This document shows, piece by piece, positions 2,602-64,000 of a stretch of DNA of 64,000 nt. How positions within the stretch are numbered: the stretch's first letter is position 1; every line of letters starts with the position of its first letter. Both the position numbers and the translations under genes were made by a program. The stretch is from a virus (taxonomy: Duplodnaviria > Heunggongvirae > Uroviricota > Caudoviricetes), in the IMG/VR virus record IMGVR_UViG_2778260992_000001; one strand, written 5' to 3'. The notes under the pieces were generated by a model. That model saw only the letters and a list, made by a program, of their open reading frames with translations, did not search any database and had not been told where the DNA came from.

Positions 2602-4710
2602 ATGTCTAAAAAACGTTCCATCAAAGAGGTTCAGGACTTCCGTGACAGTGTAAAACGAGTAGTCGCTCTCCTTTCAGGTAAAAACATCCCTGTTGCAGAA
2701 CGAGGGGACGACGCTTATGTACGCTATAACGATGATGGAGAGCCAATTCTCGTAAACATCCCATCAATCCCGGATAACGCAACACCGGCATTGATGAATG
2801 CTGTGCGCGGATTTCTCGATCATGAGGTTGCTCACATTTTGTTTACCGATATTCGTGTGTCCAACAAAATGAAAGAAAAAGGACGCGTTCCTTCCTGGTC
2901 GCTATGGAATGCCTTAGAAGACGTGTTCATCGAGCGAAAAATGGGTCAGGTCTTTAACGGAACAAGACGTAATCTGATGGCAACTCAGCGCCTTATAATC
3001 GAAAAAGTCTTTAAACCAAAGGCTTCAGAGGCTATTGCTTATTGTGGCAAAGATCAGCGCGCGCTTTTTCTAAACTTCTTTCTCTGTCCGGTTGTAAGAG
3101 CCTGGGATGGCCAAGCACCGTTCGTAGATTTCATGGATGAATATTGGCCTGTCATTGAGAAACCAATTTCATTATTAAAAGAACATGGTATCGATGTGGC
3201 CGTGCGTAACATGTCTTGCACCGAGGATTGTGTAAAGGTGGCTGCGACCATAGCTAAGATCCTCAAAGACACTGAAAGTGAAAGCAAAGGTAAGGAGTCA
3301 GCTCCGGGAAAAACTTCCGATCCTTCAGACGCTGACCAGACGGATGCCTCTGGAGAAAACAATGAAGACAACGAAGATCATGAGACACCCTCATTGTTAG
3401 ATAACCACAAATCTATCAAATCAGAATCACACAGTAACCACAAACATGATAATAACAACAGTGATGATTCAGATAATTCTGAATCATCAGAAACAATATT
3501 CGATGATACAGAAAATGATAAAGAGGTATCAGATTCTGATGCTTCTGATAACGCGGCGTCAGAATCATTAACCGCTGACCACGAAAAAAGAAAAACGACA
3601 GAAGACGGCTCTTCAGATATTCCAACTCCGTCAAAAATGAGTCTGGAAGAGGCTTTAGAGGAGCTGGATAGCATAGAAGATGAAGTCGGAGGCATGACAG
3701 AAGATGCTCTATCCGAAACGATTAAAAGCGAGTTAACAGAAAGCTCGAAAAGTGAATACAGGCCATACAATCGCTCATACGACTTCATCGGCTCGATTGA
3801 TCAGGCAGAAGCCCATATCAAACGGCTTATTAAAACATTCTCCGATATTGATTTAGGAGGATATCCAATCAGCCGCTATCGCATCGTTCCTGAAGGCAAC
3901 CAGCTCTTCGACAAATATATTGAAAAGCATCTTTCGTCAGGTGTTTCGTCGACGCTGGCAAAAGACCTGGAGCGAGCAATAGCAAGCAGAAACAGAGTTC
4001 AGTTTATACCGGGCCAGCGTCGGGGGCGCATTCATGGTTCTAGTATCTACAGATTAGCAATGAATGATGATCGCGTGTTTCGTAAAAAAGAAGAATCTAA
4101 AGCCGTTAATGCCTGTGTTCAACAAGTGATTGATTTATCAGGTTCAATGAGTGGTATAACGATACAATTGGCTCTTGCAAGTGCATATACCATCGCCGAT
4201 GCCCTTGATCGAATAAATGTTCCCAACATTATCACCGGCTTCACTACATTTGGTAGTCATATGGCGGCAGGAGAACTTAAGGCTGTCAAGTATGAGTTCT
4301 CTCGCTTTGAATCTTTAATGCTACCTATCATCAAAAATTGGAATGAAAAGGTAAATTCTCGCGAAGTTCGCTCACGTATGGGGTGCGTAGGCTACACATT
4401 CCCACTTCTTAATAACGTGGATGGTGAAAGCATAGCCAGCCTTGCATCGTTATTTTCCGGTCGCATGGAGGACAGGAAGATCATGCTTGTTCTGAGTGAT
4501 GGCGCGCCGTGGGCTGTTGGGAGAGGGTTTGACGCTCATTTGCGTTCGGTTGCGAAACAAATTGAAACGCAGACTGACATTGATTTGATGGCAATTGGCA
4601 TCATGACTGACGCACCGGAGAGATTTTACTCAAATCATGCCCTGGTAACGAGCGTTGATAGTCTTGGTTCATCTGTAGTTACTGAACTATCTCGTATCAT
4701 TTTGAAGTGA
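2602..4710 (+). CDS. CobT-like von Willebrand factor A (vWA) domain protein
   Basis: 702 aa; long acidic Ser/Asp/Glu-rich central region; C-terminal MIDAS motif DLSGSMSG; paired with downstream AAA+ ATPase. Confidence 0.7.
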   Translation: MSKKRSIKEVQDFRDSVKRVVALLSGKNIPVAERGDDAYVRYNDDGEPILVNIPSIPDNATPALMNAVRGFLDHEVAHILFTDIRVSNKMKEKGRVPSWSLWNALEDVFIERKMGQVFNGTRRNLMATQRLIIEKVFKPKASEAIAYCGKDQRALFLNFFLCPVVRAWDGQAPFVDFMDEYWPVIEKPISLLKEHGIDVAVRNMSCTEDCVKVAATIAKILKDTESESKGKESAPGKTSDPSDADQTDASGENNEDNEDHETPSLLDNHKSIKSESHSNHKHDNNNSDDSDNSESSETIFDDTENDKEVSDSDASDNAASESLTADHEKRKTTEDGSSDIPTPSKMSLEEALEELDSIEDEVGGMTEDALSETIKSELTESSKSEYRPYNRSYDFIGSIDQAEAHIKRLIKTFSDIDLGGYPISRYRIVPEGNQLFDKYIEKHLSSGVSSTLAKDLERAIASRNRVQFIPGQRRGRIHGSSIYRLAMNDDRVFRKKEESKAVNACVQQVIDLSGSMSGITIQLALASAYTIADALDRINVPNIITGFTTFGSHMAAGELKAVKYEFSRFESLMLPIIKNWNEKVNSREVRSRMGCVGYTFPLLNNVDGESIASLASLFSGRMEDRKIMLVLSDGAPWAVGRGFDAHLRSVAKQIETQTDIDLMAIGIMTDAPERFYSNHALVTSVDSLGSSVVTELSRIILK

Positions 4711-4805
4711 ATAAAACAGCCTTAATGATAAGTAACCACTTACGATAGTTAATGGTATATTTATATAAGAAGTTGAACGCTCATTAGAGAACAAAGGAAA
4801 AACGC

Positions 4806-6041
4806 ATGACGACTACTGCACTGCAAAATGAAAAAAATCATTCTGATTACCTTGTTTGCAAGTGGTGCGGAAAATCATTTCACTATTTTAAGTCCCATGT
4901 AGCCAATGGTAATTGCGAGGGCATTCCTGAGTCAGTAAAAGATGCCGATCCTGACACCGTACTGAAAATGTACACAACACAGTTTCCAGATGAGCCAACG
5001 CTATCGAAAAAGGCACTTGATGCAATTCAAGCTAAACGTGCCGAGCAAAAAAGCGAAATGGCCAAATCATCTGGCGTGACCAGTAGCCCAGGCTACACAG
5101 GCACAGTTGAGTACAAGACAGATCTGGTCGCAGCTCACGAACTGCTAAATGTAACGGTGAAAGAACTCGGAACAAAACGTGGGACGCCGCTCATGGTTAG
5201 CGTCAACGTCAATACGCCGTTTCCAGAGTTCGTTCCAGAAGTGAAGAAGGGATACGTATATGGCGACTTCGAACTGATCAAAGACATTTTCATGATGCTT
5301 GAACTTGGCATACCTGGCTATTTGTGGGGTCATGCAGGAACAGGCAAATCTTCATTGCCTACACAACTATGTGCTTTGCTCAATCGTCCGTTAATCCGTG
5401 CCCAACATACAGCATCAATGGAAGAGGCTCATGTTACGGGACAAATTCTGGCGCGTGATGGCTCTACGTATTTCGAGCCTGGCTTGCTTGCGCTCGCAAT
5501 GAAGCATGGCTGGGTTTACCTCGCGGATGAATACGACTTTGCGTTTCCACAGATTCTTGGCGTGTATCAGCCAGTGCTGGAAGGTGAAGCGTTGGTCATC
5601 AAAGAGGCGACTCCAGAATGGCGTCGCATTACTCCGCATGAACGGTTTGCTTTCATTGGCACTGGCAACACGAACGGATCTGGTGATGAAACCGGCTTGT
5701 ACCAGGGTACAAACATCCAGAACGCCGCGAACTTTTCGCGTTTTGGCATCGTTTCGAATGTGAAATACATGAGCAAAGAGGCAGAGATCAACATGTTGAT
5801 AAATGCCGGTATCGTGGATGAATACGCAGAAAAGATGGTTAAGTTTGCCGGTATCGTTCGCGATGGATACGAAGAACACCTTATCAGTCAGCCAATTGGC
5901 CCTCGTGAACTTTTGTTGTCGGCCAAGATTGGAATGATGCGAGGCGACTTTGTGACAGGTATTGAGCGTTCTTTCATTAACAAACTCCCTTCAGCTTCTG
6001 CGCAAGCGGCACGTGAAGTTGTTCAAAAAATATTTGGTTAA
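4806..6041 (+). CDS. CobS-like / MoxR-family AAA+ ATPase
   Basis: Walker A GHAGTGKS, Walker B-like VYLADEYD; partner of the vWA protein. Confidence 0.7.
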   Translation: MTTTALQNEKNHSDYLVCKWCGKSFHYFKSHVANGNCEGIPESVKDADPDTVLKMYTTQFPDEPTLSKKALDAIQAKRAEQKSEMAKSSGVTSSPGYTGTVEYKTDLVAAHELLNVTVKELGTKRGTPLMVSVNVNTPFPEFVPEVKKGYVYGDFELIKDIFMMLELGIPGYLWGHAGTGKSSLPTQLCALLNRPLIRAQHTASMEEAHVTGQILARDGSTYFEPGLLALAMKHGWVYLADEYDFAFPQILGVYQPVLEGEALVIKEATPEWRRITPHERFAFIGTGNTNGSGDETGLYQGTNIQNAANFSRFGIVSNVKYMSKEAEINMLINAGIVDEYAEKMVKFAGIVRDGYEEHLISQPIGPRELLLSAKIGMMRGDFVTGIERSFINKLPSASAQAAREVVQKIFG

Positions 6042-47948: not shown

Positions 47949-49049
47949 TCACACTGCGCGGAATGCGATTTCGCCAGGTATTACTTCACCTTGCCAATAC
48001 ATTTGGGCAGCAACGCGATCTGCGAGGTCACGATAAATAGCCGTAAATTCGCTATCTGGACGACTAATAACGGTTGGTGTTCCGTTATCCAGATCTTCAC
48101 GAAGAGAGATATGAAGTGGCATTTGGCCTAACAACTGCGTGTTGTATTTCTCGGCCAGTTTCTGTGCGCCACCGGTGCCAAAAATTGGCTCGTGATGACC
48201 GCAGTTACTGCAAATATGCACACTCATGTTTTCAACGATACCCAGTACCGGCACTTCGACTTTTTCGAACATCACAATGCCTTTCTTCGCATCGATCAGC
48301 GCGATGTCTTGCGGCGTAGTTACCACAACCGCACCAGTTACAGGAATGTTCTGCGCCAGCGTCAACTGAATATCACCAGTGCCCGGCGGCATATCGAGAA
48401 CGAGATAGTCCAGATCAGGCCACAGTGTTTCCTGCAACATCTGCATCAGCGCCTTGCTGGCCATCGGTCCACGCCACACCATTGCATTGTCGTCGGTGAC
48501 CAGATAACCAATAGAGTTGGTTGCCAGGCCATGAGACATGATAGGTGCCATGTGAGTACCGTCAGGTGAGGTTGGACGTTGGTTTTCCGAGCCCAGCATG
48601 GTTGGAATTGATGGACCATAGATATCGGCATCCAAAATACCAACTTTCGCACCTTCAGCAGCCAACGCCAGTGCCAGGTTTACCGCCGTGGAGGATTTAC
48701 CCACGCCGCCCTTGCCTGAGCTGACGGCGATAATGTTCTTCACGCCATTAATGCCTGGTTGGTTTTTGACGCGCTTAAGCGTGGCAATGTTGTACGACAG
48801 CTTCCAGTCAATAGCCTTTGCGCCAGTGATACGGAGCAGATCACCACTACATTGCTCTTTCAGGTCTTCAAAAGGCTTATTCCACACGAAAGGCATGATT
48901 AGTTCGACATGCAGTGTGTCATCCATCAACGCAACATGGTGTAACGCTTTAAGCGTAGTCAGGTTGTGTTTCAGGGTTGGGTGCTGAAAATTAGCCAGCG
49001 TACCGGCTACCATTGCTCTCAGGGCATCCGGCGATTTGGACTCGCTCAT
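47949..49049 (-). CDS. mrp: iron-sulfur cluster carrier ATPase Mrp/ApbC (host-type)
   Basis: Near-identical to enterobacterial Mrp over its length as remembered (ALRAMVAGTLANFQHPTLKHNL ... SSGKGGVGKSS ... CSNCGHHEPIFG). Confidence 0.9.
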   Translation of the reverse strand: MSESKSPDALRAMVAGTLANFQHPTLKHNLTTLKALHHVALMDDTLHVELIMPFVWNKPFEDLKEQCSGDLLRITGAKAIDWKLSYNIATLKRVKNQPGINGVKNIIAVSSGKGGVGKSSTAVNLALALAAEGAKVGILDADIYGPSIPTMLGSENQRPTSPDGTHMAPIMSHGLATNSIGYLVTDDNAMVWRGPMASKALMQMLQETLWPDLDYLVLDMPPGTGDIQLTLAQNIPVTGAVVVTTPQDIALIDAKKGIVMFEKVEVPVLGIVENMSVHICSNCGHHEPIFGTGGAQKLAEKYNTQLLGQMPLHISLREDLDNGTPTVISRPDSEFTAIYRDLADRVAAQMYWQGEVIPGEIAFRAV

Positions 49050-49206
49050 CCCGTCTCCTTTATTTTAATTTGCGCAATTGTCGCCTTGTAGTGTACTCCA
49101 GCTACGACATTTAATCATTTATGAGAAATGCTGTTATCACATGGCAGACATAAGGCCATTTTGTTACTATCAAGCCCCTTTTCACTACAAAGAAGTAATG
49201 CCTACT

Positions 49207-51240
49207 ATGACCCAAGTCGCGAAGAAAATTCTGGTGACGTGCGCGCTGCCGTACGCTAACGGCTCAATCCACCTCGGCCATATGCTGGAGCACATCCAGG
49301 CTGATGTCTGGGTTCGTTACCAGCGAATGCGCGGCCACGAGGTTAATTTCATCTGTGCCGACGATGCCCACGGTACGCCGATCATGCTGAAAGCACAGCA
49401 GCTTGGTATCACACCGGAACAGATGATTGGCGAAATGAGTCAGGAACACCAGACTGATTTTGCAGGCTTTAACATCAGCTATGACAACTATCACTCGACG
49501 CACAGCGAAGAGAACCGTCAGTTGTCCGAGCTTATCTATACTCGCCTGAAAGAGAACGGTTTTATTAAAAACCGCACCATCTCTCAGCTGTACGATCCGG
49601 AAAAAGGCATGTTCCTGCCGGACCGTTTTGTGAAAGGCACCTGCCCGAAATGTAAAGCACCGGATCAATACGGCGATAACTGTGAAGTCTGCGGCGCTAC
49701 TTACAGCCCGACTGAACTGATCGAGCCGAAATCGGTAGTTTCTGGTGCTACGCCGGTAATGCGTGATTCCGAACACTTCTTCTTTGATCTGCCTTCTTTC
49801 AGCGAAATGTTGCAGGCATGGACCCGCAGCGGTGCGTTGCAGGAGCAGGTGGCAAACAAAATGCAGGAGTGGTTTGAATCTGGCCTGCAACAGTGGGATA
49901 TCTCCCGCGATGCGCCGTACTTCGGTTTTGAAATTCCGAACGCACCGGGCAAATATTTCTACGTCTGGCTGGACGCGCCGATTGGCTACATGGGTTCCTT
50001 CAAGAATCTGTGCGACAAACGCGGCGACACTACCAGCTTCGACGAATACTGGAAGAAAGACTCCACCGCCGAGCTGTACCACTTCATCGGTAAAGATATC
50101 GTTTACTTCCACAGCCTGTTCTGGCCTGCCATGCTGGAAGGCAGCAATTTCCGCAAGCCGACCAACCTGTTTGTTCATGGCTATGTGACGGTGAACGGTG
50201 CGAAGATGTCCAAGTCTCGCGGCACCTTTATTAAAGCCAGCACCTGGCTGAATCATTTTGACGCTGACAGCCTGCGTTACTACTACACTGCGAAACTCTC
50301 TTCGCGCATTGATGATATCGATCTCAACCTGGAGGATTTCGTTCAGCGCGTGAATGCCGATATCGTGAACAAAGTGGTTAACCTGGCCTCCCGTAATGCA
50401 GGCTTTATCAACAAGCGTTTTGACGGCGTGCTGGCAAGCGAACTGGCTGACCCGCAACTGTACAAAACCTTTACTGATGCTGCTGAAGTGATTGGTGAAG
50501 CATGGGAAAGCCGCGAATTTGGTAAAGCGATTCGTGAAATCATGGCGCTGGCTGATCTGGCTAACCGCTATGTCGATGAACAGGCTCCGTGGGTGGTGGC
50601 GAAGCAGGAAGGGCGCGATGCCGATCTGCAGGCGATTTGCTCTATGGGCATTAACCTGTTCCGCGTGCTGATGACGTACCTGAAACCGGTACTGCCGAAA
50701 CTGACTGAACGTGCAGAAGCATTCCTGAATACAGAACTGACCTGGGATGGTATCCAGCAACCGCTGCTGGGCCATAAAGTGAATCCGTTCAAGGCACTGT
50801 ATAACCGCATCGACATGAAGCAGGTTGAAGCACTGGTGGAAGCATCCAAAGAGGAAGTAAAAGCCGCTGCCGCGCCAGTAACTGGCCCACTGGCAGATGA
50901 TCCGATTCAGGAAACCATCACCTTTGACGACTTCGCCAAAGTTGACCTGCGCGTGGCTCTGATTGAAAACGCGGAGTTTGTCGAAGGTTCTGACAAACTG
51001 CTTCGCCTGACGCTGGATCTCGGTGGCGAAAAACGTAATGTCTTCTCCGGCATTCGTTCCGCTTATCCAGATCCACAGGCACTGATTGGTCGTCACACCA
51101 TTATGGTGGCCAACCTGGCTCCGCGTAAAATGCGCTTCGGTATCTCCGAAGGCATGGTGATGGCTGCTGGCCCCGGCGGGAAAGATATCTTCCTGTTAAG
51201 CCCGGATGCTGGTGCTAAACCAGGCCACCAGGTTAAGTAA
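49207..51240 (+). CDS. metG: methionyl-tRNA synthetase (host-type)
   Basis: [26 protein letters not shown] (HIGH) and KMSKS motifs; essentially the E. coli-type MetG sequence; start set at MTQVAKK, 43 codons inside the track ORF. Confidence 0.95.
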
Positions 51241-56824: not shown

Positions 56825-57307
56825 ATGAATTTTATCGCTACTGTAAACGCACCCGCACATGGCAATATCGCTGTAACGTTCTCTGACATTGAAAAACGAG
56901 TACTTGGTGCATGGCGCGACAATGAGACGGTAGAACTGTCAGCACAAGAAAAATGCATTATTGCACGCGACATCATTGGCAATCGTCGTTACTCGCGGGT
57001 ATTTGAAAAAGCGTATGTGGTAAATTCTGGATTCGGAACGTTCGTCTTTCCGGTGCGCTCCGGGCGATTCTGCCAGTCCAAGCTGATTGAGTTCGCTACG
57101 CAGATTTCTGTCTGGATTAAAACTCAATCGTCGTTCAAATTTTCCGACGATGAAGCAGTATCGCAGGGGATGCGGATCGCCAACAATGCAATTAAATGCA
57201 AAAACATTACGTATACCGCTGGCGTTGATACATGGAAACTGTTTTGCGCTAACTTTATGCTGAATGTATACGCAAGCAACCGCATCCACATCCTTGATGG
57301 CGTGTAA
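56825..57307 (+). CDS. hypothetical protein
   Basis: 160-aa ORF; terminator hairpin GGGCC-agaaac-GGCCC downstream. Confidence 0.5.
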   Translation: MNFIATVNAPAHGNIAVTFSDIEKRVLGAWRDNETVELSAQEKCIIARDIIGNRRYSRVFEKAYVVNSGFGTFVFPVRSGRFCQSKLIEFATQISVWIKTQSSFKFSDDEAVSQGMRIANNAIKCKNITYTAGVDTWKLFCANFMLNVYASNRIHILDGV

Positions 57308-57314
57308 CTGAGAA

Positions 57315-57500
57315 GAGGGCCAGAAACGGCCCTTTCTCTATAGCCACCAGCTGCCGCAGGGAAATTTTCAGAAACGGCGAGGAACGTATTCATGAGCCGA
57401 CGGGAAACGGCCAGGATTTTTTCGGGAAACGGCTGCATTCGCCTTTATGTAGAAAAAACATCGGGAAGCTGGTGGAATCCAACCAGCGGTTGTCGGACAG
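57315..57500. repeat. cluster of GRAAACGGC repeats (copy 2)
   Basis: CAGAAACGGCCC, CAGAAACGGCGAGG, GGGAAACGGCCAGG, GGGAAACGGCTGC, GGGAAGCTGG; TTCTCTATAGCC also shared with the 54.55 kb region. Confidence 0.55.
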
Positions 57501-57894
57501 GTGAGCGGGGAAAATTATGATGACTTTCGTCACCTGAGACATCCAGATTTCTTTCGTAGCATAATCACATACGTGATTAAGTGGTGTGATTATGTGAAAA
57601 ATCACGCGCACATAATACGCGAGCGGATACAGAACAAAACAAAATGCCGATCCGCACCGACAAATAAACGCGGATCACATAGCAAGACTAAAAGCCAATG
57701 ATTAACCATACTCTATAGCGCAATATAACGCGTTTTAAGCGCGTTAATGTGTTAAGTAATGGGTATGTACTGGCAAGGATATAAAAGCGCGTCTATGGCG
57801 TTATTTTGGTGCTTATTTTTATGTTGTTGGAGTGAGTTAAAGACAATAAAAAACGCGCCATTGATGGCGCGTTATTGTGGAAGTATTGGAAACG

Positions 57895-57930
57895 AAAAAA
57901 GCGCCCATAGTGGGCGCTCGATTTTATTTA
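57895..57930 (-). terminator. terminator hairpin GCGCCCATAGTGGGCGC flanked by A- and T-tracts
   Basis: Perfect 7-bp stem; A6 upstream and T-rich downstream on + strand, so it can act for the minus-strand cassette; duplicate at 58397-58413; related ACGCGCCATTGATGGCGCGT hairpin at 57851-57872. Confidence 0.55.
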
Positions 57931-58154
57931 TGTAAACTGATTTCAAATCCCATTTCTACAAACGCTTTCAGCATTAAAAATATATCAGCGTCGTTCACGT
58001 CTGCTTTTTTTCGCTCCTGGTCGCTCAATAAGTCAATTTTGCGCGTCGTTTCATCTATAAGCTCGACTGCGCGCCCAGCGTAACCAGCGATCCCAGCGAT
58101 GCGATTAACATAATATTCGTTATGGACGTTAACGCCAGCGATAAGAACAAACAT
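57924..58154 (-). CDS. hypothetical small protein (cassette gene 3)
   Basis: 76-aa ORF, last gene of a minus-strand three-gene cassette. Confidence 0.4.
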   Translation of the reverse strand: MFVLIAGVNVHNEYYVNRIAGIAGYAGRAVELIDETTRKIDLLSDQERKKADVNDADIFLMLKAFVEMGFEISLHK

Positions 58155-58174
58155 GATTAAGCTCCTTAAAAAAA

Positions 58175-58378
58175 TTAAATAGAATTTTGAAGTTTTCCAA
58201 TTAATGCGCTTAAACGTAAGTATTCACGTTTGCGCTTGCAATCTCGCTTGCTGTTAAGCAAATCAGAAAACGTAAAATTTAATTGGTCGCGTTGCGCGAT
58301 TAAATCATCGATTAATTCTAGTTTATAAGCGCGATACTTTGCGCGATATTCCGCGCGGATCTTGTCATAGCTGACCAT
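58175..58378 (-). CDS. hypothetical small basic coiled-coil protein (cassette gene 2)
   Basis: 67 aa from MVSYDK with AAGGAG RBS; Lys/Arg-rich; track extension runs into the hairpin and is rejected. Confidence 0.4.
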   Translation of the reverse strand: MVSYDKIRAEYRAKYRAYKLELIDDLIAQRDQLNFTFSDLLNSKRDCKRKREYLRLSALIGKLQNSI

Positions 58379-58426
58379 TTTCAAAGCTCCTTTAAAGCGC
58401 CCATAGTGGGCGCTTGATTCCATTAA

Positions 58427-59077
58427 TTACGCTTTGAAAGCATCAGCTAAATAATTGTAGAAATCATTTTTAATGAAGCGATATTGCTGAGTACCAGCTT
58501 TCGCGCTCCCAGCTCCTTTGACTTTTTCAACAAGTCCAAGACGTTCGCAAAGATTGATCAACTGGTTGGCTTGAGTATAACCAGCGTCCAATTTAATTTC
58601 ACACGCTTTTTTAGCTTCATTCATTAAATCGAAAACAGCGCCATTAGTGAACGTGTCGATCTCGTCGTTAATCATATCGATTAAAGCGAATACACGAGAT
58701 CCAGACATATCAGCGATGGAATAAACGCATTTACCAGATTTAATTGATTTAACCAGATAAACCAGTTTTTCCAGAGAATAACTATTAGTCATTGCATCAC
58801 GGAAAAATACTTCTGGCGCTTGTTTGCTTGCTTTAATCGCATAGTAGAAAACAGAGCATAATTTTTCGTCTTCTACTGCGTTTACGACGTTGTTGATGAA
58901 GTAAGCAAGTTTAGTGGTCGCAGCTTGCATATTTGCTTTGTCTGCTTTAGTGTGCGTACCATTTTTATAATGTTCGTTATATGTTTGAGTTGCCAGATCT
59001 GCTTTTTCGCGCAGTTCATCGGATACAATGGAAGCAGCTTCAATGATGGATTTTTTAGAAATGATAATGTTAGCCAT
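58427..59077 (-). CDS. hypothetical protein (cassette gene 1), possible C-terminal winged-helix
   Basis: 216-aa ORF; sequence style (GCGCG-rich, AT-rich flanks) differs from neighbours. Confidence 0.5.
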   Translation of the reverse strand: MANIIISKKSIIEAASIVSDELREKADLATQTYNEHYKNGTHTKADKANMQAATTKLAYFINNVVNAVEDEKLCSVFYYAIKASKQAPEVFFRDAMTNSYSLEKLVYLVKSIKSGKCVYSIADMSGSRVFALIDMINDEIDTFTNGAVFDLMNEAKKACEIKLDAGYTQANQLINLCERLGLVEKVKGAGSAKAGTQQYRFIKNDFYNYLADAFKA

Positions 59078-59319
59078 GATAATTTTTCCTTATGTAAATT
59101 TAAAATTTATTGTCGTTAGCGTCTTCGCTTTCGACGAGTTCAATTATCGATATGCGAAAAAAGATTGCAAGTGTTTTTTTTAAATTTTTTGCAGGGATGA
59201 AAGTCCTAGAAATAAAAGCGAGATCGTCGAAGGTGTTCCCTAAATAAATAATCGATTGCGGCTTTAGACCTTATATATATTTAGGTTATTTGATTTGTAG
59301 ATATAAAGAAGTGATGTGA

Positions 59320-59350
59320 AAAATAATAACCGGACTTAGCCGGTTATTAA
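59320..59350 (-). terminator. terminator hairpin AATAACCGG-acttag-CCGGTTATT for minus-strand genes
   Basis: A-tract on + strand upstream gives a T-tract after the hairpin on the minus strand. Confidence 0.5.
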
Positions 59351-59360
59351 CCTTATAGAT

Positions 59361-59669
59361 TTATTGAACAGAATCTACAGCCTTACGATTGGTGTCAAAT
59401 AGCGCATCAACGAACTGTGCCGATGACTCGCTAGATTCGCAATCCAACATTGCCCGTTCTTCATTTGCCACTTTCTTACACAGTTCTACATTCTCACCTA
59501 TCGCTTTTCCTGCTTTTACGGCTGCCGAAAATTGATACATGCAAACTGATACATTCTGAGACGTTGAGCACACGTCATTCATCAGCGACTGAATGACAGG
59601 CTTATAGTCCATTGCATTTGCCGCAACTGAGCAAAGTAAAAATAATGGTGGTAACAATATCGATTTCAT
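59361..59669 (-). CDS. hypothetical secreted Cys-rich small protein
   Basis: Signal peptide MKSILLPPLFLLCSVAANA; four Cys in mature part. Confidence 0.5.
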   Translation of the reverse strand: MKSILLPPLFLLCSVAANAMDYKPVIQSLMNDVCSTSQNVSVCMYQFSAAVKAGKAIGENVELCKKVANEERAMLDCESSESSAQFVDALFDTNRKAVDSVQ

Positions 59670-59672
59670 AAC

Positions 59673-60197
59673 TCAAAAAGGCAAAATTCGTTCAACCCAA
59701 TCGAACAAAACAACTATTTTTCTACCGTTCTCGACACGTAGTGTAACCTGACAAGCATCTGCGCCTGCTGACACCCCCTCAATTTCACGGCCATCCGCCA
59801 TGTACACCCTTATAGATTTGTTTGCTTTGTAGGCTTGGTTGCAAATTGCAAAAAAATCGCGGCGTGATGGCCGATTATCGACATAATCAGGGTGAACTGT
59901 TAGTCGACCTTTGAAATCGTGAGCGATACTGTCAACCACACCTGATTCAATTGTACTAATGCGTTCAAGTGGGAGCCTTATACGATTTTCTTTGTCAAAA
60001 GGGGCTGGGCAAAGGTCAACTTTGTTACGAGATGGCATGAGGCCATAAACGTACATGCAAAACGCCTGGCCATCTTCGAGAGTGACCCTTACAGGAATTT
60101 GTTCTCTGCGCCAGAACATCAGTAGTTTTTCAACGTTAGTGTAATCTCGCGGCCAGAGTTCAGCTTGGATACCGTAGGTAATATCTTTGGTTGTCAT
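59673..60197 (-). CDS. hypothetical protein (weak tandem Rof/YaeO-like resemblance)
   Basis: Start set at MTTKDITYG to avoid overlap with upstream lipoprotein gene; resemblance is weak. Confidence 0.4.
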   Translation of the reverse strand: MTTKDITYGIQAELWPRDYTNVEKLLMFWRREQIPVRVTLEDGQAFCMYVYGLMPSRNKVDLCPAPFDKENRIRLPLERISTIESGVVDSIAHDFKGRLTVHPDYVDNRPSRRDFFAICNQAYKANKSIRVYMADGREIEGVSAGADACQVTLRVENGRKIVVLFDWVERILPF

Positions 60198-60201
60198 GTC
60201 A

Positions 60202-60666
60202 TCACAGAGTTGTTGGCAGAATGTCGATGTCACCAGAATTGCTGGTGAACACCCTGAACGCTTTTGTGTCTCCATTCTTCAGAGTCGTTTCTCGCTCTTG
60301 ACGAGCGGGGTTTAGAGCACATAAACCTGCACCTTCAAGAGATGCACCCACAATTAATTCTCCGGCATTTAAATGAAAAGTCGCTTTTTCGCCTGTAGCC
60401 AGTTTTGCGACAGTTTCGCCATTGATGAAAATGGAAGCATCACATCCAGCTCCTACAAAACCTGTGTCTCTCATTACCACCAACGTAGCTGGCGCTGCGC
60501 TTTGATACTTGAACACTTTGGCCTGCGGTGCTGGTTTGGCGTCATGGATTGATATTGGACGTGATTGGCACGCGGTAAGCATCAACACTGGTAACGTTAG
60601 TAGAGGGAGAAGCGAGTATTTCATGTTAGTTTTAGAACAGAAAGTGAACAGTATGGGAGACTTCAT
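60202..60666 (-). CDS. lipoprotein (DUF2846-like by pattern)
   Basis: Lipobox LTAC after hydrophobic signal; start may instead be the internal MKYSLL. Confidence 0.5.
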   Translation of the reverse strand: MKSPILFTFCSKTNMKYSLLPLLTLPVLMLTACQSRPISIHDAKPAPQAKVFKYQSAAPATLVVMRDTGFVGAGCDASIFINGETVAKLATGEKATFHLNAGELIVGASLEGAGLCALNPARQERETTLKNGDTKAFRVFTSNSGDIDILPTTL

Positions 60667-60692
60667 CTTTGTCTCCCTAATTGATAGCGTGA

Positions 60693-60971
60693 TTATTTTA
60701 ATCTGCTTAATAGCGTTTCAAGATCTTCCTTTGTCATATTAGAGTTCTCATAGATACGCATGATTTTCTCACGAGTCTTAGCGGAAGCCCCGACAGAAGA
60801 TATAACCTTGTCAAAGTCGGCCATTGTCAATTGTTCCAGAATGGTATTTATGACTTCAGCCTTAGACATTTTGATATTTTTTTCTTTTAGTTTCACTTGA
60901 AACTTTCCAAGTTTGTCATTGGCCTTATCAGACAATGCTACCTGACAGTAAGTTGTTTTCTTTTCACTCAT
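60693..60971 (-). CDS. hypothetical protein
   Basis: 92-aa ORF, Lys/Glu-rich. Confidence 0.4.
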   Translation of the reverse strand: MSEKKTTYCQVALSDKANDKLGKFQVKLKEKNIKMSKAEVINTILEQLTMADFDKVISSVGASAKTREKIMRIYENSNMTKEDLETLLSRLK

Positions 60972-60973
60972 AA

Positions 60974-62533
60974 CTAATCTCGTTTCAGAACTCCAAAATC
61001 GAATGCTCCATCAATAGGCAATACACCTTCTGCAAAGCCAGGTGTGGTGTCGATGATGTGTTTTCGCTCATAAGAGTGAGACAACAGGTATTTGTTGCTA
61101 ATGTCAATGAAATCAGTGATAAAACACACGTTTGCCTGATTTTTTTTGGCTCGTAAGCCACGACCGACACGCTGTCTCATTTCAACTTCTGCTTTCCCAC
61201 CACCAGCAAGAATGACCGCACCAACGCTTGGCACATCAACACCAACATCCAGAATAGTCGAGCCTATTAAAACATCTATTTCACCAGACGCTAAACTATT
61301 CAGCTTTGCTTGCCTTGTCGTCTGGTTAGATTCCCCATAGATGAAATCAACTTTAAGACCTGACTCCTTCATCATCTCCATCAGGATTTGCCCGTGGCGT
61401 TTAAGACGAACCAGAGTCATGCAGTTGAGTGAATGTTGCTTATAAAGCAATGCCTCGCGCACTATGGCCTCGTTACGTCCCAAATTATACACGATCCCCA
61501 ACTGATAAGCCTTTTGGTAGGCGGTGCTCATACCAACTCTAAAATTAAGGTGTTTGTTGGCAAGTTCCGCCTTGATTCTGACCTCGTCTGGCTTGTAAGC
61601 AACTTTATGATAAAGGAAGTACGGTTTTGCCAGAATGCCTCGATCAATCAGGTACTTTTCTGTGACTTTAATTTCAATTCGACCGGCCACAGCCATCAGA
61701 CGCATGTTGGCTTCTGTAGAATCCTTCATGAACGGCGTGGCCGTAAGCGCCAGACGATAGTCTGCGTTCACACATAATCTGGCAATGTCATAGAAATTAG
61801 AGCCTGAAGACTCATGCGCTTCTTCCAGAATAAGCAGAGACACACTTGAAAGGAAGCGTTTCACTAGCTCCCGACGTTTGAGGTGGTAGCTCTTTTTATC
61901 TGGTGTTGCATCGCGTGGTGGTTCTTCAAGGAAACTTGCCAGAGTTTGAACTGTAGCGACGTTGATATGTCGTGATACCTGGAACTCACCCGAGCCAATG
62001 ACTCCAACCTTTTGGTCTTTTAACCACGGTTCGCCATTTTCGGCGCGGTAGTCGATGGATCTCTGGAAGTTTTCGGCCATTTGAAACATCAGAACAGAGC
62101 GGGTTGTTAAAAATAATGTCATTCGACCGATACGTGCAGCTGCTTTGCAGGCAACGTTAGATTTCCCGCCACCAGTAGCGATCTGCGCAATCATCATTCC
62201 CTCTCGAACCAGTGTTTCCACAGTCTGATCCTGATATGCATAATCAGGATTGTATGGGAATGGGTTAACCGCCGGATTTGGTTTACCAAGCGCCGGGGCT
62301 TTGTCTTTGCGGATATGAACACATTTGATGCCCGCCTTGTTCAAGTTCGCCGCTACAGGCTTGGCAAAGCCAGCAGGGAACGAGTTTTTACTCCAGTTGA
62401 ACATCGTGCTTGTGCCCTTCCAGTCGCCAGTCTCGACTTCGTAGCTCAACATTTGCTGCACCAGTTGCTTTACCTTGTCATCTGCGCCAGAAATAAGCGC
62501 ATTTACTGCGTTAGATACAATCCGAACAGTCAT
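60974..62533 (-). CDS. superfamily-2 DNA helicase (DEAD/DEAH-like, type III restriction res-subunit-like core)
   Basis: Walker A ATGGGKS; motif II LILEEAHE; C-terminal helicase motifs. Confidence 0.7.
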   Translation of the reverse strand: MTVRIVSNAVNALISGADDKVKQLVQQMLSYEVETGDWKGTSTMFNWSKNSFPAGFAKPVAANLNKAGIKCVHIRKDKAPALGKPNPAVNPFPYNPDYAYQDQTVETLVREGMMIAQIATGGGKSNVACKAAARIGRMTLFLTTRSVLMFQMAENFQRSIDYRAENGEPWLKDQKVGVIGSGEFQVSRHINVATVQTLASFLEEPPRDATPDKKSYHLKRRELVKRFLSSVSLLILEEAHESSGSNFYDIARLCVNADYRLALTATPFMKDSTEANMRLMAVAGRIEIKVTEKYLIDRGILAKPYFLYHKVAYKPDEVRIKAELANKHLNFRVGMSTAYQKAYQLGIVYNLGRNEAIVREALLYKQHSLNCMTLVRLKRHGQILMEMMKESGLKVDFIYGESNQTTRQAKLNSLASGEIDVLIGSTILDVGVDVPSVGAVILAGGGKAEVEMRQRVGRGLRAKKNQANVCFITDFIDISNKYLLSHSYERKHIIDTTPGFAEGVLPIDGAFDFGVLKRD

Positions 62534-62575
62534 AAACCTCTTTCCTTAGTGCCTTTTGTATGTTATTTGGCTATT

Positions 62576-62601
62576 ATAATAAGTAAGTGATTACTTAGTG
62601 G
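62576..62601. promoter_or_regulatory. class-2 palindrome ATAATAAGTAAGTGATTACTTAGTGG in divergent promoter region
   Basis: Between helicase start (minus) and ParB-like start (plus). Confidence 0.45.
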
Positions 62602-63296
62602 ATTGTAGCAATAAAATGGATGTAAAAATCACGATTTTGCAGGTTGATGTTGCCAACCTTCGCCCGAATACCTGGAACACCAATTCGGTTGGTGCGCAGA
62701 ATTTTGAAAAACTGAAAGGTTCTATCGAAAAATTGGGCTTTTTTAAGCCAATTTTGGCTCGTGAACTTGAAGATGGATTTTTTGAAATCCTCGGCGGTGA
62801 ACATCGCTGGCGTGCTGCTATTGAGCAAGGAATTTCAACGGTTCCGGTGCTTTCTGTGGGCAAAATTAGCGATGTCGTAGCTAAACAGATGTCACTGGTG
62901 GACAACGAGCGATACGGTGAAGACGACCAAATCGCATTGCAACGCTTCATTGAAGAAATTCAGTCAGAACTTGACTATCAACTGTTTGAAATCGCTCCGT
63001 ATGACGACGAAATCTCGATGGTTTTAGCAAAAGAGGCGGCAATCGACCTTGAAGCACTGGAGGCGTTGTCTCGTGGTAGTGATGAGCCTGTCGATACCGA
63101 CAAACGAGAGAAAACCGAACGTGTGGGTGCGGAACATCAGACCATGCGCTTCAAAGTAACTTTCGATGCGTCAGATCGTGTTGCAGAAACCATAAAAAAC
63201 ATCATCAAAGAGCAGGCTATTAACACCGGTAATGAAATGGAGAACGCTGGTGAGGCTCTGGTGTGGCTGGTCGACTACTACAAGGAGCGTATGTAA
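62598..63296 (+). CDS. ParB-like nuclease-domain protein 1
   Basis: ParB/Srx-fold N-terminal motifs including GGEHRWRAA. Confidence 0.6.
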   Translation: MDCSNKMDVKITILQVDVANLRPNTWNTNSVGAQNFEKLKGSIEKLGFFKPILARELEDGFFEILGGEHRWRAAIEQGISTVPVLSVGKISDVVAKQMSLVDNERYGEDDQIALQRFIEEIQSELDYQLFEIAPYDDEISMVLAKEAAIDLEALEALSRGSDEPVDTDKREKTERVGAEHQTMRFKVTFDASDRVAETIKNIIKEQAINTGNEMENAGEALVWLVDYYKERM

Positions 63297-63964
63297 TGAC
63301 CAAAAAGTTTGAAATCGTATATCGCGACCCGGCAGATCTTATTCCCTATGAGATGAATGCCAAAAAGCATGATGAACAGCAGATCAGAGATCTGGCCGCA
63401 GCCATTAAAAAGCGCGGATTTGACCAGCCAATTACGGTCGATAAGAACGACGTAATTATTACTGGCCACGGCCGCCGTGAGGCTGCAATTTTTGCTGGAC
63501 TTGAGCGCGTACCGGTTATTGTTCGCGATGATCTCAGTGATGACGAGGTTCGTGCGAAGCGCCTTGAAGATAACCGACTTGCCAGCATTGATTACGATGC
63601 AATTAAGCTACAGAAAGAGCTTGAGTCGCTTGTTCTGGACGATATCGAGGTTTTCGGCTTTGAAGAGCGTGAGTTGAATGTTCTCGTTGGCAGTATGACA
63701 GAAGAAATGGACACCGACTCGCTAGTTATCGATCTTGGCGAAGAAACTAAACGACAGAAGGATGAACACACCGAGATCAGTCGTGAAGTTGCAGCGGAAG
63801 AAGTACGTGTTGTCGACGTATTGGGCTTTAAAACGCTCCCTGCTGGCTCTGCCATTGTTGTTGGTGATTTGCTTGCCCATATGGAAGAAATGACGGGAGA
63901 AAGCGGGGTAGACGCATTTGTGGCATATGCGGAGAAGATCTCTTCCGGGGAGATGGCTGCATGA
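63296..63964 (+). CDS. ParB-like nuclease-domain protein 2
   Basis: GHGRREAA ParB/Srx motif; ATG overlaps upstream stop with AAGGAG RBS. Confidence 0.6.
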   Translation: MTKKFEIVYRDPADLIPYEMNAKKHDEQQIRDLAAAIKKRGFDQPITVDKNDVIITGHGRREAAIFAGLERVPVIVRDDLSDDEVRAKRLEDNRLASIDYDAIKLQKELESLVLDDIEVFGFEERELNVLVGSMTEEMDTDSLVIDLGEETKRQKDEHTEISREVAAEEVRVVDVLGFKTLPAGSAIVVGDLLAHMEEMTGESGVDAFVAYAEKISSGEMAA

Positions 63965-64000
63965 GCAAATACATCATCAACGTATCGTTTCAGACACGCG

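Follow-up and report, generated by a model that had tools for sequence, protein, structure and literature searches.

A FljA-family gene in the core of SSU5-like phage-plasmids and its two accessory neighbours with predicted envelope-targeted products

FljA-type repressors and phage lipoproteins

FljA is a textbook component of flagellar phase variation in Salmonella, and, to our knowledge, its fold, its recognition of RNA and its origin are poorly known. A gene of the same family is described here on a 64,000-nucleotide stretch of viral DNA (the window; IMG/VR record IMGVR_UViG_2778260992_000001, Caudoviricetes), where it lies between two genes whose products carry predicted export signals. 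The 4.6 kilobases (kb) around the three genes are 99.3% identical to the E. coli plasmid pTHO-010-2, with a similar match to about 100 other non-mobilizable plasmids of roughly 110 kb each, and show 98.6% identity to Escherichia phage CMS-2020a and 79.6% to Salmonella phage SSU5; by these identities, the window is assigned to an E. coli phage-plasmid (P-P) of the SSU5/pHCM2/pMT1 type. The three-gene unit (1.4 kb) is present in 117 of 5426 complete E. coli genomes (~2%), every time on a plasmid. We consider it fairly probable that the locus consists of a core post-transcriptional regulator of the FljA family, with a main target other than the host flagellin, and two accessory genes for envelope proteins.

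The FljA of Salmonella belongs to the same family and length class as the window protein, with 36% identity over the whole protein and three shared motifs, but the two genes differ in their setting: that of the window lies between a helicase operon and a gene for a 216-amino-acid (aa) protein, p216, has neither a flagellin gene upstream nor an invertase nearby, and is kept in non-flagellate hosts. For the role proposed below, T4 RegA, a small phage protein that binds mRNA leaders and shuts off the translation of a set of genes, offers a functional analogy only, there being no sequence relationship. FljA(z66), encoded on the linear plasmid pBSSB1 of S. Typhi and 67% identical to LT2 FljA, acts post-transcriptionally and across genera, since cells contain fliC mRNA but make no flagellin, and a pBSSB1 derivative renders motile E. 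coli non-motile (PMC2652032). FljA(z66) and the FljA-like repressors found beside extra flagellin genes in E. coli are likewise of the FljA type and, in the case of pBSSB1, borne by a mobile element; however, the FljA(z66) type is paired with its own flagellin gene and belongs to the canonical branch, whereas the window gene is unpaired and its product 36% identical to canonical FljA.

The lipoprotein encoded in the window would resemble T5 Llp and the Cor proteins of phi80 and N15, which are likewise small phage lipoproteins of the outer-membrane type made in the infected or lysogenic cell. The cor and llp genes are located near receptor-binding genes, a position comparable to that of relatives of the window lipoprotein near tail and host-specificity genes in lambdoid phages. 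The window lipoprotein differs from Llp and Cor in its family (phrog_890, weakly DUF2846) and in its mature size of 121 aa, about twice theirs, and no similarity to them was detected in sequence (PHROGs) or, at a significant level, in fold (Foldseek against the PDB with a low-confidence model).

A full-length member of the FljA family

The middle gene of the unit (59673-60197, minus strand) encodes 174 aa, one fewer than the 175 given in the first-pass annotation, which had described the product simply as a cytoplasmic protein. The lack of a signal peptide agrees with that description, but the protein is not anonymous: it matches the Pfam family PF03614 (Flag1_repress, repressor of phase-1 flagellin) over positions 1-170 of the 170-position profile with an expect value (E) of 1.5e-84 and 282.4 bits (cut-off 24), and phrog_1444 with E 1.9e-100. 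Judged by these profiles, the middle product is a full-length PF03614/FljA-family member, referred to below as the FljA-like protein. The family is very small, as an exhaustive HMMER scan of 1.84 billion protein-cluster representatives yielded 26 relatives. The representative P0135, which heads a 1141-member cluster named "phase 1 flagellin gene repressor FljA [Salmonella enterica]", aligns with the FljA-like protein in full length (36% identity over 171 residues, pairwise E 1e-37), and the motifs common to the FljA-like protein and Salmonella FljA are DI(T/S)YG..AE.WPRDY, PSRRD(F/Y)F.IC and FDWV.RI. The ratio of nonsynonymous to synonymous substitution rates (dN/dS) is 0.09-0.26, a Klebsiella-Klebsiella pair included, which indicates purifying selection.

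Several weak Hfq/Sm-like signals fall on one and the same segment of the C-terminal half, residues 120-162, namely Pfam Hfq (E 6.8e-4, 19.6 bits against a cut-off of 27), TIGR02383 (E 0.073) and PDB chains of the Hfq-like protein of the archaeon M. jannaschii (E 0.18). Such a segment would weakly fit RNA binding by the FljA-like protein. Alignment of the N-terminal with the C-terminal half by hhalign paired the expected segments with E 0.0029 and a probability of only 10.6%. Profile searches detected no DNA-binding domain, the Hfq/Sm-like signals being the sole secondary ones, and a PDB sequence search with the single protein as query returned no matches.

Conservation across phage-plasmids and linkage to flagellin

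Counted by tblastn matches in the plasmid database PLSDB, the FljA-like gene occurs in 831 plasmids, near full length in 822. The counts for the FljA-like and the helicase gene are, respectively, 341 and 346 in Klebsiella, 229 and 228 in Escherichia, 92 each in Enterobacter, 62 each in Yersinia (Y. pestis), 27 and 25 in Citrobacter, and 10 each in Cronobacter. Ten loci from E. coli, Salmonella, Y. pestis and Klebsiella were compared, and all ten share one gene order: a DEAD/DEAH helicase gene (60974-62533 in the window, minus strand), the gene for the 92-aa protein p92 (60693-60971, minus; phrog_1466, labelled 'unknown function' in PHROGs), a variable slot, the FljA-like gene, sometimes a small open reading frame (ORF), a terminator, a conserved intergenic region and the p216 gene (58427-59077, minus). 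The helicase, p92 and p216 genes form the conserved frame of the locus, and one lineage with a FljA-like protein of only 36% identity has this order as well. In the SSU5-like P-Ps of enterobacteria, the FljA-like gene belongs to the syntenic core. K. pneumoniae is without flagella and Y. pestis is non-motile; in both, the FljA-like gene is intact, its product retains the motifs in common with FljA, and selection on it is purifying.

The genomic context of the relatives falls into two classes, as seen in one-genome-per-species representatives. Six loci with 55-83% identity to the FljA-like protein are in a P-P context, none with a flagellin gene, whereas five chromosomal loci with 35-39% identity, from Salmonella diarizonae, two Atlantibacter, Franconibacter and Citrobacter, all have a flagellin gene about 90 nucleotides (nt) upstream. 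In a crude motif scan, the window showed no flagellin-like sequence, the immediate neighbours of the gene being the genes for the lipoprotein and the small secreted protein, and no Hin-like invertase was found among the 189-aa ORFs of the window. The window gene belongs to the P-P class and is without the defining context of the canonical fljBA system. A chromosomal homologue in E. coli, P0074, was considered as a flagellin-linked fljA and rejected, as its neighbourhood resembles a decayed P-P segment and contains no flagellin gene.

Transcription in the plasmid state and the region upstream of p216

E. coli LF82 carries the P-P pLF82, which is Escherichia phage Cyrano; the FljA-like gene of this element, CYRAN_114, encodes a product 78.5% identical to that of the window. 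In published LF82 transcriptomes (PMC9928086 S1 Table; readings as log2(fpkm+5), where fpkm is fragments per kilobase per million), CYRAN_114 reads 4.2 in overnight LB (lysogeny broth) culture and 6.9-8.1 in growing and intramacrophage bacteria, compared with about 3-5 for the Cyrano terminase and capsid genes and 6.4-10.3 for its lysogeny repressor. The p92 homologue CYRAN_117 reads 6.3-9.9; at 12-fold over the local background, it is among the strongest plasmid-state genes of Cyrano. The p216 homologue CYRAN_113 stays near background (2.3-3.9). The CYRAN_114 readings show that the FljA-like gene of Cyrano is transcribed while the element resides in LF82 as a plasmid. The same samples contain flagellin mRNA in great abundance, up to 11.7, and LF82 has been described as motile, switching from motile to biofilm behaviour (PMC8149705); the readings argue against constitutive silencing of flagellin.

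The gene for p216 is preceded by an intergenic region (59078-59323, minus strand) with conserved non-coding blocks and a promoter candidate. The blocks ATATATATAAGG, ATTTATTTAGGGAACACCTTCGA and TTTATTTCTAGGACTTTCAT, at 59269-59280, 59227-59249 and 59197-59216, lie within 59143-59280, as does the conserved promoter candidate TTGCAA-16-GATAAT (TTGCAA at 59170-59165, GATAAT at 59148-59143, minus strand). Both blocks and promoter are kept where the flanking proteins are only 35-49% identical, including a lineage with values of 36% and 49%. These non-coding blocks could be operator sites or a small RNA, and we infer from their conservation that the region upstream of p216 is a candidate target of regulation.

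Homology of the P-P gene to FljA is not new, since the database records of SSU5, pHCM2 and some plasmids already label it a putative repressor of phase-1 flagellin. A literature search found no paper connecting fljA with SSU5, pHCM2 or phage-plasmids, and two large surveys of P-Ps do not mention flagella or motility. It appears that the status of this gene as a core gene expressed in the plasmid state across the enterobacterial group, non-flagellate hosts included, has been unreported.

Organization of the three-gene unit

The unit consists of three consecutive, tightly packed minus-strand ORFs, as the first-pass annotation had it: the lipoprotein gene (60202-60666, with an alternative start at 60624), the FljA-like gene, and the gene for a 102-aa secreted protein with four Cys (59361-59669), separated by gaps of 4 nt and 3 nt, respectively. 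The low dN/dS of the lipoprotein and FljA-like genes and the intact homologues of the small ORF indicate that all three are real genes. A consensus scan revealed a sigma-70-like promoter candidate (TTGAAA-18 nt-AATAAT, 10 of 12 matches; 60692-60721, minus strand) that falls within the 3' end of the p92 gene and could drive the unit; read-through from the helicase and p92 genes is also possible. The terminator proposed earlier is found directly after the last stop codon, as an intrinsic-terminator-like hairpin with a 10-bp stem, a 6-nt loop and a T-run (59324-59349, minus strand), which is kept in every lineage compared, 3' of either the FljA-like gene or the small ORF. At E<=1, the only Rfam matches within 57000-64000 were three chance ones below threshold. 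The unit had also been described as lying opposite to its neighbours, which is wrong locally, as p92, the helicase, p216 and, beyond it, p82 (82 aa, 58175-58423) are all on the minus strand; it is the whole block 58175-62533 that runs against the mostly plus-strand window.

The accessory genes and their products

The lipoprotein has 154 aa if translated from the ATG at 60666, which is preceded by a Shine-Dalgarno-like AGGGAG, and 140 aa from the ATG at 60624, the start common to most of its homologues. A positive N-terminus and a hydrophobic stretch are followed by the lipobox that had been noted in the initial reading, LTAC at residues 16-19 of the 140-aa form. Homologues have LSAC, LTAC, LTGC or LIGC, with an invariant lipobox Cys and Q, S or F, never D, at position +2; in the mature part, two further Cys are invariant or nearly so. 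The protein is predicted to be a substrate of signal peptidase II, lipidated at the Cys, and sorting to the outer membrane is predicted because residue +2 is Gln. Its dN/dS is 0.02-0.14. PHROGs labels phrog_890, to which it is assigned, 'lipoprotein', and the first half of the DUF2846 model (PF11008) weakly matches 28 of 33 homologues, with a best E of 9e-4 and all scores under the curated cut-off (18 bits versus 34.3). A model built from the 33-sequence alignment is all-beta with a mean predicted local distance difference test (pLDDT) score of 59; a Foldseek search of the PDB with this low-confidence model gave nothing at E<=1e-3, and generic beta-sandwich matches to LecB, CBM35 and Ena3A were rejected as fold identities (template modelling scores 0.38-0.45, E>=4e-3).

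The small protein has a signal peptide of typical n-h-c form, MKSILLPPLFLLCSVAANA, followed by MD (cleavage at ANA|MD), and a mature part of 83 aa that is acidic (isoelectric point 4.6) and contains the four Cys, in line with the earlier call of a Sec signal and four Cys. One homologue lacks the fourth of these Cys; the other three are invariant, and the signal peptide, ending in A.SA or A.NA, is kept in all seven aligned homologues. It is predicted to be a Sec/signal peptidase I substrate located in the periplasm. It belongs to phrog_9536 (labelled 'unknown function' in PHROGs), and intact homologues exist at 64-87% identity. One of these, on pHCM2 of S. Typhi (locus L007, 4517-4822), is an intact 102-aa homologue with signal peptide that is absent from the gene table.

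The distribution of the two flanking genes differs from that of the FljA-like gene. By tblastn, the lipoprotein is found in 421 PLSDB plasmids and the small protein in 259, against 831 for the FljA-like gene, which contradicts the view of the trio as a conserved functional unit. Most Klebsiella P-Ps have in the same slot, in opposite orientation, a 28%-identical homologue of the lipoprotein (pairwise E 5e-18), which at >=95% identity occurs in 241 plasmid records, nearly all from Klebsiella; in other lineages, the slot is filled by other exported proteins or by cytoplasmic proteins. Klebsiella elements also have a 30%-identical relative of the small protein after the FljA-like gene. On the plasmid of K. 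pneumoniae TH1 (locus L004), the inverted lipoprotein homologue is at 3399-3836 and the homologue of the small four-Cys protein at 4532-4831.

Lipoprotein relatives with 27-52% identity also reside in tail modules, between the gpK-like and gpI-like genes of mEp390 (L015, 3420-3866), after the tape-measure gene of HK639 (L016, 3459-3872) and before the host-specificity protein gene of a 54-kb linear P-P of Klebsiella (L013, 4956-5378). In HK639, the relative is two genes upstream of a YafO-family toxin gene. More homologues are found in temperate phages of Pseudomonas and Vibrio, and on a Xanthomonas plasmid adjoining a restriction-modification system. Because of their variable presence and, for the lipoprotein, the inversion and the tail-module homologues in unrelated phages, the lipoprotein and small protein genes are classed as accessory add-on genes ('morons') around the core gene. 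Their products probably modify the surface of the lysogenic cell, to judge from their signals, and the tail-module positions in other phages make an exclusion role for the lipoprotein plausible by analogy. The earlier term 'envelope cassette' thus holds for these two, which are moron-like and carry envelope-targeting signals, but not for the middle product, a FljA-family regulator. Superinfection exclusion may be considered, again by analogy, for the two flanking genes only; it is not applicable to the middle product, because that is a FljA-family regulator without export signal. None of the three proteins matched a PADLOC defence model.

Proposed mode of action and alternatives

In the scheme that we favour, the three genes would be transcribed into one mRNA, either from the candidate promoter at 60721-60692 or by read-through from the helicase operon, ending at 59349-59324. 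The lipoprotein would be exported by Sec, processed at LTA|C and passed on to the outer membrane; cleavage at ANA|MD would set the small protein free in the periplasm. The FljA-like protein would stay in the cytoplasm, where, by homology, it would bind the leader of an mRNA and block its translation. Its conserved target would be a transcript found in every host of the element, probably one encoded by the element itself; the main target is placed on the element because the gene is core in flagellate and non-flagellate hosts, lacks linkage to flagellin and is expressed in the plasmid state. The p216 operon, with its conserved leader and promoter region, would be the leading candidate, on the grounds that the upstream region is ultra-conserved and that CYRAN_113 is silent while CYRAN_114 is expressed. 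Some repression of host fliC in motile hosts would be possible as a secondary effect.

Silencing of flagellin may instead be the main function, such that the FljA-like protein represses translation of host fliC mRNA and lysogens lose their flagella, a form of lysogenic conversion that would bring protection from flagellum-dependent phages, avoidance of TLR5 and a saving of energy. This is what the full-length homology and the shared motifs would lead one to expect, the host genera besides Klebsiella and Y. pestis are mostly motile, the homologue is expressed in the plasmid state, and plasmid-borne FljA(z66) does repress fliC, its plasmid making E. coli non-motile (PMC2652032). We nonetheless regard it as unlikely, since 341 Klebsiella and 62 Y. 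pestis plasmids have kept the gene intact, with purifying selection acting on it, no replacement flagellin is linked to it, unlike in every chromosomal relative examined, and LF82, which carries Cyrano, has very abundant flagellin mRNA and is described as motile. In addition, S. Typhi strains with pHCM2 are typed H:d. A different proposal keeps the target on the element but moves repression to DNA: a transcriptional repressor bound at 59143-59280 would hold p216 and the genes after it silent as long as the element is a plasmid. The adjoining non-coding blocks, conserved between lineages with flanking proteins 35-49% identical, and the background level of CYRAN_113 (2.3-3.9) while CYRAN_114 is expressed are consistent with it, and many source records name the protein "transcriptional regulator". 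However, FljA-type repression is post-transcriptional, with fliC mRNA present without the protein (PMC2652032), the only secondary signals in the FljA-like protein are Hfq/Sm-like and none is for a DNA-binding domain, and the conserved blocks could bind any other factor, all of which makes direct DNA binding distinctly improbable. Least of all do we expect the three products to act jointly as an envelope cassette that masks a receptor or blocks DNA entry against superinfection, an idea to which we give very little credence. Tight packing, the common terminator, two products with envelope-targeting signals and the occurrence of lipoprotein homologues as add-on genes in phage tail modules speak for it, but the middle product lacks an export signal and comes from a family of regulators that bind mRNA, the presence of each gene is independent of the others, the lipoprotein is inverted or replaced elsewhere, and there is neither a PADLOC match nor a fold match to a solved exclusion protein.

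A FljA-family regulator whose main target lies on the element itself has points against it as well. The N-terminal motif DI(T/S)YG..AE.WPRDY, common with true FljA, would fit a shared kind of target, and the FljA-like protein is tied to p216 by adjacency and conservation alone. A blastn-short search of the 64-kb window for a sequence like the leader of E. coli fliC had a best E of 0.41, no better than chance. Each of the Sm-like signals is below significance, and the single-sequence structure model of the FljA-like protein (mean pLDDT 35.9) was discarded as unusable. The LF82 data concern the mRNA of a 78.5%-identical allele, while FljA acts mainly on translation; because the readings are of mRNA only, repression of the FliC protein in LF82 would be compatible with them. 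Finally, the non-flagellate or non-motile status of K. pneumoniae and Y. pestis, on which part of the argument depends, is textbook knowledge.

Further features of the element

Beyond the three-gene unit, the helicase (60974-62533) shows moderate matches to the PADLOC PbeA models (best E 5e-23), which probably reflect generic helicase similarity, as this is a core gene whose Cyrano counterpart carries a UvsW-like annotation. The P-P also carries metG, encoding a full-length methionyl-tRNA synthetase (49078-51240, plus strand; PF09334, E 5e-166), adjoined in divergent orientation by a gene for an apbC/mrp-type P-loop NTPase (47949-49049, minus strand), an arrangement also seen on the E. coli chromosome. 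This pair occurs in ~190 SSU5-like plasmids of E. coli at 95-99% identity and is rare in other genera. Segments of such a P-P were also encountered in contigs L021 and L022, labelled as Bacillota or "Candidatus Fimivivens" metagenome-assembled genomes, with a helicase 82-93% identical, and protein P0079, labelled Gemella morbillorum, likewise comes from an enterobacterial P-P segment; the Bacillota, "Candidatus Fimivivens" and Gemella labels are probably artefacts of binning or contamination.

Possible origin of FljA and significance

Canonical FljA is 33-37% identical to the main P-P clade and 25% to the second P-P clade in the identity matrix. As it is nearer to the main P-P clade than to the second, it would fall inside the P-P diversity, in a grouping obtained by neighbour-joining with midpoint rooting that is not robust. 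Tentatively, the FljA family may be primarily a core post-transcriptional regulator of P-Ps, possibly Sm-like, that silences an operon of its own element, with p216 as the candidate, and the flagellar FljA would be a domesticated offshoot retargeted to fliC mRNA, a scenario that we hold possible, though less likely than not. The identities hint that the flagellar FljA derives from a P-P gene; in Salmonella, Atlantibacter, Franconibacter and Citrobacter, it would have been captured beside a flagellin gene.

The lipoprotein and the small protein are added candidates among the uncharacterised surface proteins of prophages, ordinary by themselves. If most of the FljA family does exist as a core gene, expressed in the plasmid state, of this very common group of P-Ps, the P-Ps present in ~2% of complete E. 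coli genomes would possess a post-transcriptional control step that has so far been unrecognised, and the same step would operate in hundreds of clinical Klebsiella plasmids. It would also call for caution against taking "flagellin repressor" annotations on plasmids literally, and it would offer an origin for FljA.

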